The position numbers were made by a program. From the NCBI RefSeq assembly GCF_003018255.1, contig NZ_CP027440.1: a DNA stretch of 64,000 nucleotides; one strand, 5' to 3'. The stretch comes from Escherichia coli. Lineage in GTDB: Bacteria; Pseudomonadota; Gammaproteobacteria; Enterobacterales; Enterobacteriaceae. Below, one piece after another: positions 13,101 to 16,100 of this stretch. Positions within the stretch are counted from its first letter, which is position 1. Each line of letters starts with the position of its first letter.

Positions 13101-16100
13101 GTATGCATGCTGGGTGGGGAAAGTATGAAGGAAAAGAAGACTGCCGCGCCGTTTGTCGTCACATTTATCTTCATTGGCTATGCAAGTCGTAATACAAGGT
13201 GGGACAAAACAGAGACACATAAGGTCTCACAAAGGTCTGCAAGGCCTCACATGTATTGAGATGTTAATAAAATGTAGACTTGTAATTTGGATATAAATGG
13301 TAGAGAAAACCTTTCCCCAAAATAAAAACGAACGTCAATGAAATCAAACGGTTGAATAAAGTTGATTTTGGCTAATAAAAAGACAATAAAATAATTTTTA
13401 TCATTAAATATCAATGAATTGAACTTAATGTTTTTATATACTGTTACGCCATATGGGCTGGACTGAAGCCGCAGACCTGATTGTTAAAGGTATGGAAGGC
13501 GCAATCAACGCCAAGACTGTAACCTATGACTTCGAACGTCTGATGGAAGGCGCTAAACTGCTGAAATGCAGCGAGTTTGGTGATGCGATCATCAAGAACA
13601 TGTAATCTCTACATGTGTTAAATATTGAAACGGGCGTATAACACGCCCGTTGTTTTATTTATGTGGATATTATTAATAGCATGTCGAGCATATTTATATG
13701 AAGCCCATTACTTGAGTCCATATGGGCATATTTTTATAATACAACTATTATGCAAACATTTATTTGGTATTTCGCTTTCTCCAGGAGGACACTCTTGACT
13801 GCTTTTGAGTAAACTCCATAAATCCTTGTTAAATGGTGCGATGTTATAAATAGTAATAGGGTATTCTTTATCCTTAAGGATAATACCAGACTTAACCGGT
13901 GTAAATATACTTCCAGGAGGGAGAAATATAGTAGATTGATACCAGATGATCATTTTCATATCACCCCATATGGCTGAAAAAGATATGCCGCATGTAGGTT
14001 GAATTAACGTGTCAATTACTATCCACTTCATTTGTTATGTCTTATCCCACGGTATTTAATATAGTTCATTAGGATGTTCATTTCTTGATTTTGCATATGA
14101 GTATATTATCCCCTCAAAAATATTAATTAAAAATTAAAACCGTTGCCTATATAAAACAAAATTTAAAGCAAGAAATCTCAATAGATATTAAACAAAATGA
14201 TATTTAGTGAAAACAATAAATTATTCACTTCGTTTTAGATTTGTTTAGCTATAATGTTATACATTCAAATGACTGAACATCATGTAATTAAAACATAGCC
14301 TTTATGCTACTTTGTGCCAATTTGCTAAATATTATGGTTGCATTTTTATATAACGATAATAATGAATATAAGCATGACATGAGAATAAGGTTTCAATTTT
14401 TGAGTTATATAGGAATGGTTAAACCCGTTCCTGACTAAAATACATATAATCGGATGATGACTAAACCAAAACACATGTGCGTTAAGTATTGAAACGGGCG
14501 TATGGCACGCCCGTTGGTTTTATAAATATGTTAACCGTTATAAAATAACGTATAGAAAGTCAAGTGATCACATTTCAAATATCAAGTTGATAGTATTGGC
14601 CTGGTGATTATTTATGGGTGGCAATAAAAAGACAGTATTTATCATCCATAGGGATAGTCTCTGCACTTTTATTTCCATTATGCTAATGTCTTACTGAATT
14701 ATGAAGCATTTTTTAAGCATCCAACTTTAGCTAGATTAATGGTTTATTATTTTCTACATCTTCAATATATAAAAGCGTATTATCAATGGCGTAGTAACTG
14801 CGTTTGTTATGATTAACATCAGTAACCCACCGGAAAACGCCCGCGTCTGCCAGTGTTGAACAGTACTCCCGAAATGTAGATTTTCCGGAAATATGAAGCA
14901 ATGCGGCCTCTTTTATTTTAGCAGGGTTCTTTTTCGTACTAACTTTTAACAGGTTCCTGGTTCCTCTTAATAACAAAACCGTGTCATCGTGAGTAATAAT
15001 TCTGATGTTATCCGTAGCCAGATAATAAATGTAATGTGCAACACGGTGATGTTTTAATTCTGAATAAAACCAGGAGAAGTTTTGCTCTTTTCTCACTTGC
15101 TCAAACATCTTTTGAAAAACAACGACCTGATCCATCAGGATAATAACCTCTTGTTAGTTGTGAGACTGCGTAGTGTGCACGATCGGTTTTACCACTTCAA
15201 TCTGGTCTGTCCTTTGGCTGTGATATGTACAAAGTGTGAAAGGGGGATTACCTGAATTCTCCCGGTGAGCATTTTGCAACGGACCAGCTCCGGTACAAAA
15301 GCTGTTGTGGGTTCAGATTATAAGATTCTGTCTAAGGGGCGGGATAAAGGTGAAATTAGGGGGCATGAAAGATGACTTTATAACCTTGCTCACCCCAGTG
15401 TTGTAAAAGTTCGTTTTGCCTTCTCGTTGGTGCCATGCCTGTCCAGACAATCAATGTTTGCGTCGGGAACAGTTCCGGGCGCGGCGATTCAATGGGATCA
15501 GCAAGAACAGAAATGTGCCATCCTGACAATGATAAACGCCATGCTTCCAGCCACAATCGTGCTCTCTCTTCAACATTCCACGCCATCAGAATGGCTTCTT
15601 TACCGGGCTTACGGCGCATTTCGAAAAGTGAGGCTGCTGCGTATTCAATTAATGCGCCGTCAAACATACTGCTCATAATGCGGGAGGTGTTGTGATCAAG
15701 CACGAGACGCTGGCGAACAGGAAGGTAAACATGATTAATCAATTGATCTACTGGGTACTCTCGACCCAGTGAAATAATTCTCGCGCGTAGTTTGGCAGGA
15801 TTAGCCATACGAAGAATTGACATCATCTCTTCTTGCAGGCGACTCCAGTCATCTTCCGTATCCTGGCTGGTGGTTTCCAGTAATGCTTTAACTTTGCCTA
15901 CAGGAACGCCATTACTTATCCAACGCTTGATCTCTTCGATGCGTTGTATGTCTTCTTCATCAAAGAGTCGGTGTCCGCCTTCACTGCGCTGTGGTTTTAA
16001 CAAACCGTAGCGGCGTTGCCAGGCCCGGAGAGTGACAGGATTAATCCCGCAACGTTCAGCAACATCACCAATGCTGTAATAAGCCACAATTCCTCCTTGC

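Follow-up and report, generated by a model that had tools for sequence, protein, structure and literature searches.

Bacteriophage 21 and the element e14 integrate at the icd locus of Escherichia coli and duplicate the icd 3' end in doing so, as in the icdC pseudogene of K-12. We examined the same locus in a 64,000-nucleotide (nt) stretch of E. coli DNA (contig NZ_CP027440.1, assembly GCF_003018255.1; hereafter the window), in which the icd fragment at 13441-13605 is such a product and is followed by iraM, which encodes an RssB anti-adaptor. When Mg2+ is scarce, IraM stabilises RpoS, the general stress sigma factor. The structure and function of this PmrD-like protein have been published (bioRxiv 10.1101/2023.01.07.523045), and both iraM and iraL are known to be variably present among strains (Hryckowian et al. 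2014, PMC4045071). The iraL gene of the uropathogenic E. coli (UPEC) strain CFT073 encodes a paralogous anti-adaptor of the same family and also lies in a horizontally acquired region, but on the potB island.

In the window, iraM is bracketed by two copies of the icd terminator: copy A directly behind the icd fragment, and copy B on the far side of iraM and its AT-rich control region. Genomes that lack iraM have exactly one terminator. We lean, if only slightly, towards explaining these arrangements by an old duplication of the icd terminator around iraM and a later deletion between the repeats. The iraM presence/absence polymorphism thereby gains a structural explanation: direct terminator repeats bracket the gene, and the iraM-less allele keeps one of them. 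The icd fragment, the biology of e14 and phage 21, the function and fold of IraM, and the variable presence of iraM and iraL were already known; in the literature searched we found no description of the terminator duplication, of its relation to the iraM-less allele, or of the cryptic clade I allele described below.

The locus resembles several known systems in part. Unlike the scars of e14 and phage 21, the A/B repeat begins only past the icd stop codon, has just one host regulator gene and no integrase within the 0.8 kb between its copies, and is fixed in most of the species regardless of whether a prophage occupies icd. As in lambdoid morons, iraM appears to be a low-GC (guanine plus cytosine), self-contained unit bounded by predicted terminators, and its homologs are antisense morons; unlike them, it is chromosomal, lies outside any prophage, shares homology over its coding sequence (CDS) only, and has terminators that are copies of a host gene's. 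The locus also resembles islets flanked by direct repeats: the allele without the gene retains just one repeat, here a hybrid consistent with a crossover inside the repeat. Unlike the usual repeats of such islets, these are predicted to be bidirectional terminators rather than attachment (att) site or insertion sequence (IS) target duplications, and the direction of deletion is inferred from phylogeny. The locus would thus record an old rearrangement, in the form of an islet between direct repeats at a hotspot of phage attachment; it is a piece of genome history and reveals no new mechanism. Its features are as follows.

13441-13605, plus strand: icd' pseudogene, the last 54 codons and stop of icd by open reading frame (ORF) translation; right attachment site (attR) of a phage-21-like lambdoid prophage
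13611-13658, no strand: terminator copy A, with its hairpin at 13629-13651; predicted bidirectional intrinsic terminator for icd (plus) and iraM (minus)
13659-13707, minus strand: 3' untranslated spacer of iraM, 49 nt from the iraM stop to copy A; 94% identical between two genomes with both terminators
13708-14031, minus strand: iraM, RssB anti-adaptor with a PmrD-like fold (NCBIfam NF007393, phrog_4407, precomputed Pfam PF11183)
14032-14472, minus strand: upstream control region of iraM, 441 bp, 26% GC; includes the mini-ORF ymgK at 14288-14332
14473-14523, no strand: terminator copy B, with its hairpin at 14493-14515; displaced or duplicated copy, 45 nt downstream of ymgL (minus strand)
14524-14570, no strand: flank Y, positional homolog of the sequence directly after the icd terminator in Citrobacter and clade I
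14568-14678, minus strand: ymgL, annotated mini-ORF; segment found in allele types 1 and 2 only, with no clade I counterpart
14731-15135, minus strand: ycgX (DUF1398, phrog_413), right-hand neighbour common to all three alleles; its family is prophage cargo

Copies A and B form a direct repeat (13614-13656 versus 14478-14520) of 43 nt with 88% identity (38/43 in the ungapped core) and a spacing of 864 bp; with a 2-nt indel, it spans ACATGTG (13611/14473) to TTTTAT (13658/14523). Other two-copy repeat families in the window are 30-35 nt long and 71-77% identical. The hairpin pattern, for which 0.02 chance occurrences are expected in the window, is present solely at A and B. Each hairpin has a 9-bp stem with six GC pairs and a T-run, the GC-rich stem-loop and U-run of an intrinsic terminator, and is terminator-like on the plus strand, where four such sites occur in 1.5 kb against 0.7 expected. 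The plus-strand tails of the two copies are GTTTTATTTA and GGTTTTATAA. Both copies also fold on the minus strand, with energies of -15 to -18 kcal/mol (A -17.3; B -15.3 to -17.9), although the tail there is weaker (UUUCAAUAUUU). A first-pass annotation, made from the sequence alone, had proposed that a second copy of the icd terminator lies beyond iraM; repeat and hairpin-pattern searches confirm it as a true homolog, at the coordinates given to within a few bases, except that copy B ends at 14523 and not at 14530.

Both copies look like functional terminators, as they might if the hairpins belonged to a dispersed family resembling repetitive extragenic palindromic (REP) sequences or miniature inverted-repeat transposable elements (MITEs), or had evolved as terminators independently. 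Against this stand the 88% identity over 43 nt, which includes non-stem positions as well as ACATGTG and TTTTAT; the homology of the copy B flank to the icd flank of outgroups (see below); and the distribution of the pattern, which does not recur as many unlinked copies per genome but is confined to two sites in the window and lies elsewhere behind icd or in the phage attachment site (attP) of icd-targeting phages. We regard the dispersed or independent origin as effectively refuted. An Rfam search gave no family at threshold. In a 298-Gb species collection, E. albertii (at attL) and three Citrobacter species each had a copy of the same type behind icd; the exceptions to the icd association are a palindromic, chance-like match in an Ottowia metagenome-assembled genome (MAG) and an E. 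coli-type icd terminator (96% identical to copy A) on the 5-kb contig DYWT01000019.1 (L010, 263-344) of a MAG labelled Sporosarcina psychrophila, which is probably bin contamination. This species-representative collection gave no hit for E. coli ATCC 11775 despite an exact pattern match, and negatives from it are uninformative.

The repeat starts 6 nt past the icd stop codon and so excludes icd coding sequence. Likewise, comparison of 170 nt left of copy B with the icd 3' end revealed no coding homology (score 16.0 versus a shuffle mean of 16.1), and the right flanks of copies A and B are unrelated to each other. Between the copies lie only iraM and short ORFs, and the whole interval has a GC content of 29.5%. 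Rightward from icd', the order is copy A, iraM (minus strand), 441 bp of 26% GC with ymgK, copy B, ymgL, ycgX, bluR and bluF, the last four all on the minus strand.

The icd-ycgX interval exists as three alleles, with 5426 complete E. coli genomes as the survey base. Type 2, which has both terminators and iraM as in the window, was found in 3826 of these genomes (counted at 80% or greater coverage of a 1.4-kb query), including K-12-like 7FA, O157:H7, TW14425 and IAI39 (phylogroup F); the two-copy arrangement is common to phylogroups A, E and F. Many type 2 genomes have an intact icd with no prophage there (e.g. L003, L027, L028 and L036). Type 1, in which a single terminator is joined directly to the copy B flank and ymgL without iraM, was found in 1037 genomes, including CFT073, ST131, Nissle 1917, NU14 and ATCC 11775.

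Type 3 was located via its divergent YcgX and then via its IraM-like protein, and is present in 19 complete genomes. One of these is EC42405, a strain of cryptic clade I, which branches as the sister of E. coli sensu stricto (PMC10100065). Behind icd, a type 3 locus has in turn a single terminator, flank Y', orf455, a trkG-like gene, a different hairpin of its own, iraM', a ymgB-like gene, ycgX and bluR. Across the flanking mnmA-nudJ-rluE genes and icd, type 3 genomes are approximately 96% identical to other E. coli; sensu stricto strains share 98-99% with one another, and E. albertii stands at 92.7%. Identity between clade I and the window is 79% over the iraM CDS (71% at the amino acid level), 71% over the upstream region and 90% on the ycgX side; the icd' fragment matches the icd 3' end of clade I at 96% identity.

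The single-terminator arrangement of clade I and of outgroups allows the two copies in the window to be polarized. In three Citrobacter species, icd is followed by an A-type hairpin identical to that of E. coli and then by a flank that is colinear with the right side of copy B from the T-run onward (p ~0.003) and does not align with the right side of copy A (p 0.35). Clade I keeps this Citrobacter-like flank almost unchanged, and copy B plus flank Y (14473-14545) is 81% identical to the clade I terminator plus Y'. Terminator and flank were therefore contiguous in the ancestor, in a unit whose positional homolog is copy B together with Y. The blu module of Citrobacter freundii is not at icd but elsewhere, and E. 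albertii has a degraded prophage behind icd with no iraM, ycgX or blu genes nearby.

On the other side of iraM, the control region (14032-14472) is colinear with, and 71% identical to, the region upstream of iraM' next to ycgX in clade I, except that approximately 37 nt at its right end (14436-14472) have no clade I counterpart. The distance from the iraM upstream region to ycgX is approximately 15-48 nt in clade I and approximately 255 nt in type 2, where it comprises the 37 nt, copy B, Y and ymgL. Because the Y-ymgL-ycgX junction occurs in types 1 and 2 and not in clade I, it is a derived character common to these two types. Furthermore, since clade I has a syntenic iraM with a single terminator, iraM lay between icd and ycgX before the duplication. 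In the established E. coli phylogeny, phylogroup F is the sister group of B2. Since the sister lineage has iraM and type 2 is represented in phylogroups A, E and F, parsimony favours type 2 as the original state of E. coli sensu stricto, with iraM lost secondarily in type 1; the empty allele of B2 is likelier to reflect such a deletion than an original absence of the gene.

These comparisons also bear on a different history, in which type 1 is ancestral, iraM arrived as cargo of an element at the icd attachment site, the terminators are scars resembling attL and attR, and B2 never had iraM. The single-terminator empty sites of the 1037 genomes, the 29.5% GC content of the interval, the prophage-cargo character of the iraM family, the terminator in the phage 21 attP and the lack of chimeric deletion products would all fit such a history. 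It conflicts with the syntenic clade I iraM, which lies next to ycgX without any duplication, and with the type 2 state of phylogroup F; moreover, the repeat lacks the icd core where integrases act, no remnant of int or xis lies between the copies, DNA homology to phages ends at the iraM CDS, and B-type sequence appears in the IMG/VR collection only by overrun into host flank. We consider this history unlikely. The first-pass annotation had gone some way towards it by suggesting that two icd 3' flanks mark integration or excision events and that iraM is possibly a remnant of an older integrated element. The proposal is supported in part. In favour of the first suggestion, the locus is the attachment region of phage 21 and e14 and the terminator is present in attP, but the repeat excludes the icd core, and no int/xis remnant or donor was found. 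The second is in keeping with a prophage cargo family, yet the clade I iraM predates the duplication, and cargo simply enclosed by two attachment scars is contradicted by iraM with one terminator in that lineage. That very combination had been named as evidence against the proposal, although the clade I locus still holds a prophage-type trkG'.

Under the favoured account of duplication and subsequent loss, the repeats would later have served as the substrate for precise deletion of iraM, giving rise to the iraM-less allele in B2 and in at least one other lineage. The type 1 sequence consists of the left part and loop of copy A, followed by a 5-T run and flank as in the B copies of O157 and K-12; a crossover within the right arm, where A and B are identical over 15 nt, would yield just this hybrid. 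An earlier objection that empty sites are not A x B recombinants, based on the G that starts the T-run of copy B, was dropped, as copy B retains the ancestral 5-T run in both O157 and K-12. Six type 1 loci of B2-like character form one cluster and share one YcgX protein (the two compared at the nucleotide level, AREA_504 and KUN2017, differ at 6/612 positions), whereas the type 1 locus of E06 shows 21-23 differences from them. From this distance, the empty allele would have at least two origins, or else its junction was transferred between lineages.

E06 (NZ_CM143910.1) also carries an IS200C copy exactly between the single-terminator T-run and the ymgL flank (L002, 3217-3925). IS200C is likewise found in a type 2 locus in genome 4FM, and the icd terminator hairpin may be a target of the IS200/IS605 family.

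The event that created the duplication may be sought among the phages that use this site. The attP of phage 21 and related phages such as Lambda_4C10 contains the icd 3' end, the same terminator, arm sites and int; each integration therefore adds a terminator copy. The attL of the window genome carries the terminator, whereas e14-type attL copies do not. Among the features expected of an attachment scar, an icd core within the repeat is lacking and a single-copy empty site in relatives is found (1037/5426). By the affinities of its genes, the interval behind the attachment site is a deposit of prophage-type cargo: lambdoid prophages carry IraM homologs (55-69% amino acid identity) as antisense morons, placed between Q/stx2 or lpxR and nanS-p; E. 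albertii prophages have a YcgX homolog (70%) flanked by lysis genes and Nu1; and IraM and YcgX, like the TrkG-like protein of clade I, match PHROG families. The interval is a three-allele mosaic of such cargo, the oldest layer of which predates E. coli sensu stricto. In the window, iraM is not situated within the prophage between phage modules: it lies outside attR, and other genomes have it alongside an intact icd. The common assignment of iraM to e14, worded as 'on the e14 prophage' in PMC4045071, is thus incorrect.

A blastn search of 50,697 phage records returned no donor of the whole cassette, only the iraM CDS (~71%) and, separately, the terminator in phage-21-type attP; beyond the CDS boundaries, iraM has no DNA homology to the phage copies. 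ORF analysis, blastn and tblastn against phage collections detected no integrase or excisionase remnant between the repeats, the matches being to the iraM CDS only. No free B-type terminator was found in IMG/VR, where all four matches are prophage calls overrunning into the host flank. It is very unlikely, in our estimation, that the icd terminator is itself a recombination site, separate from the core that phage 21 and e14 use inside icd, at which some novel integrase or recombinase inserts and excises small single-gene cassettes, with A and B as true attL and attR and iraM as a switchable gene.

We propose that a local rearrangement at the phage attachment hotspot produced the duplication, once, on the branch leading to E. 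coli sensu stricto. The likeliest cause would be phage-21-type elements bringing in the icd 3' end and its terminator, with the duplication as a by-product; we put this forward tentatively, and favour it over unequal crossover. In the latter, an illegitimate, phage-independent exchange would have joined an allele with iraM directly behind the icd terminator to one without iraM. Type 2 can indeed be decomposed into a type-3-like left part (icd, terminator, iraM and promoter) and a type-1-like right part (terminator, Y, ymgL and ycgX), and the left boundary of copy B, which corresponds to a point just past the icd stop, is at the palindromic CACATGTG, a plausible illegitimate junction. Nevertheless, both parental alleles must have pre-existed, the required type 3 variant without the island was not observed, and type 1 would have to precede type 2, contrary to what phylogroup F and clade I indicate by parsimony. 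We judge unequal crossover improbable, more so than an ancestral type 1.

Several observations weigh against an old duplication followed by deletion. No intermediate arrangement, integrase remnant or icd-coding remnant was found next to copy B, and the creating event has not been reconstructed. The 21 nt left of copy B (14452-14472, GATGATGACTAAACCAAAAC) resemble the phage 21 sequence to the right of its terminator (GATGATGTAAAATCTTCCCCAAAAC), at a marginal shuffle p of ~0.04, and include one CCAAAAC motif like the arm-type integrase sites (YYTTCCCCAAAA). Deletion products with a crossover to the left of the loop, which would be chimeras with a B-type loop, number 0 in 5426 genomes, and the direction of deletion therefore rests on phylogenetic parsimony. 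The iraM genes of the window and clade I are 79% identical at the nucleotide level while their neighbours are 90-96% identical; iraM may thus have undergone xenologous replacement instead of vertical descent, but a 4-5-fold rate excess is also seen within E. coli. Finally, the sample lacks phylogroups D and G and other Escherichia species, and E. albertii is uninformative.

The two terminators appear to have evolved under different constraints. The stem and loop of copy A are identical in 12 E. coli loci, E. albertii, three Citrobacter species, clade I and phage-21-type attP. A common set of derived changes (TGCG, AAGT and loop GG) marks every B copy examined and is older than the type 2 radiation. 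The stem of copy B is broken in K-12 and ST536, where both sides of one pair now give A.G, and is weakened in N32; minus-strand stability is -15.3 kcal/mol in the window strain and O157, -9.7 in K-12 and -6.0 in ST536, compared with -17.3 for copy A. These patterns suggest that copy A is invariant whereas copy B is under weaker constraint, eroding in some lineages and seemingly dispensable in at least some. By position, copy A could terminate icd and iraM, and copy B could terminate ymgL/ycgX and shield the iraM promoter. Copy B may accordingly be annotated as a candidate terminator/insulator between ymgL/ycgX and the iraM promoter, degenerate in K-12.

The IraM protein of the window scores 170.2 bits against NF007393 (cut-off 121) and is 94-95% identical to annotated IraM clusters. 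The iraM CDS and flanks (13659-14472) differ by 3-7% between E. coli strains (window versus L003), compared with approximately 1% for bluR/bluF. In the same pair, both 50-nt repeats are identical despite the 4-5-fold local excess of divergence around iraM. In clade I loci (L046-L051), an additional YmgB/AriR-family paralog of 86 amino acids lies between iraM' and its upstream region (L051, 9492-9752). Between icd and iraM' (L051, 11059-14836) are the TrkG-like K+ transporter gene, with 90% nucleotide identity to trkG of the Rac prophage, and the 455-amino-acid ORF of unknown function.

The sitABCD operon, encoding a Mn/Fe transporter, adjoins icd-type attP or attR in phage Lambda_4C10 (L035, 1-415) and in B2 and F genomes (L001, 1-2226; L054, 14537-17986). 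As it is next to attP in a sequenced phage as well as in genomes, it is prophage cargo brought to the icd site.

With regard to the resident prophage of the window genome, the intact icd is located approximately 60 kb upstream at attL and is followed by a third terminator copy and then by integrase and excisionase genes; the icd' fragment is therefore the attR product of a phage-21-type integration. E. coli JNE23-011 (NZ_AP045067.1) is 100% identical to the window over the 1.4 kb compared, and in that record RefSeq labels the fragment as a partial isocitrate dehydrogenase pseudogene. Lambdoid prophage tail and moron genes lie upstream of 12972. Between the tail fibre genes and attR, at 8466-12972, are low-GC cargo ORFs (DUF2971, DUF4236, a 209-amino-acid hypothetical protein and DUF3800), which may be defence or moron genes. 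A 973-amino-acid tail-fibre ORF (4857-7778) contains three tandem copies of a 132-nt unit at 6238-6633 (100%, 76% and 61% identity). The portal gene of this prophage, approximately 20 kb upstream of the window start, is split into two partial CDSs (L005, 24091-36617) by an insert of approximately 11 kb that encodes an integrase, a primase, capsid and head decoration proteins and a small terminase of its own; the insert looks like a phage satellite of the phage-inducible chromosomal island (PICI) or P4-like kind integrated within the prophage.

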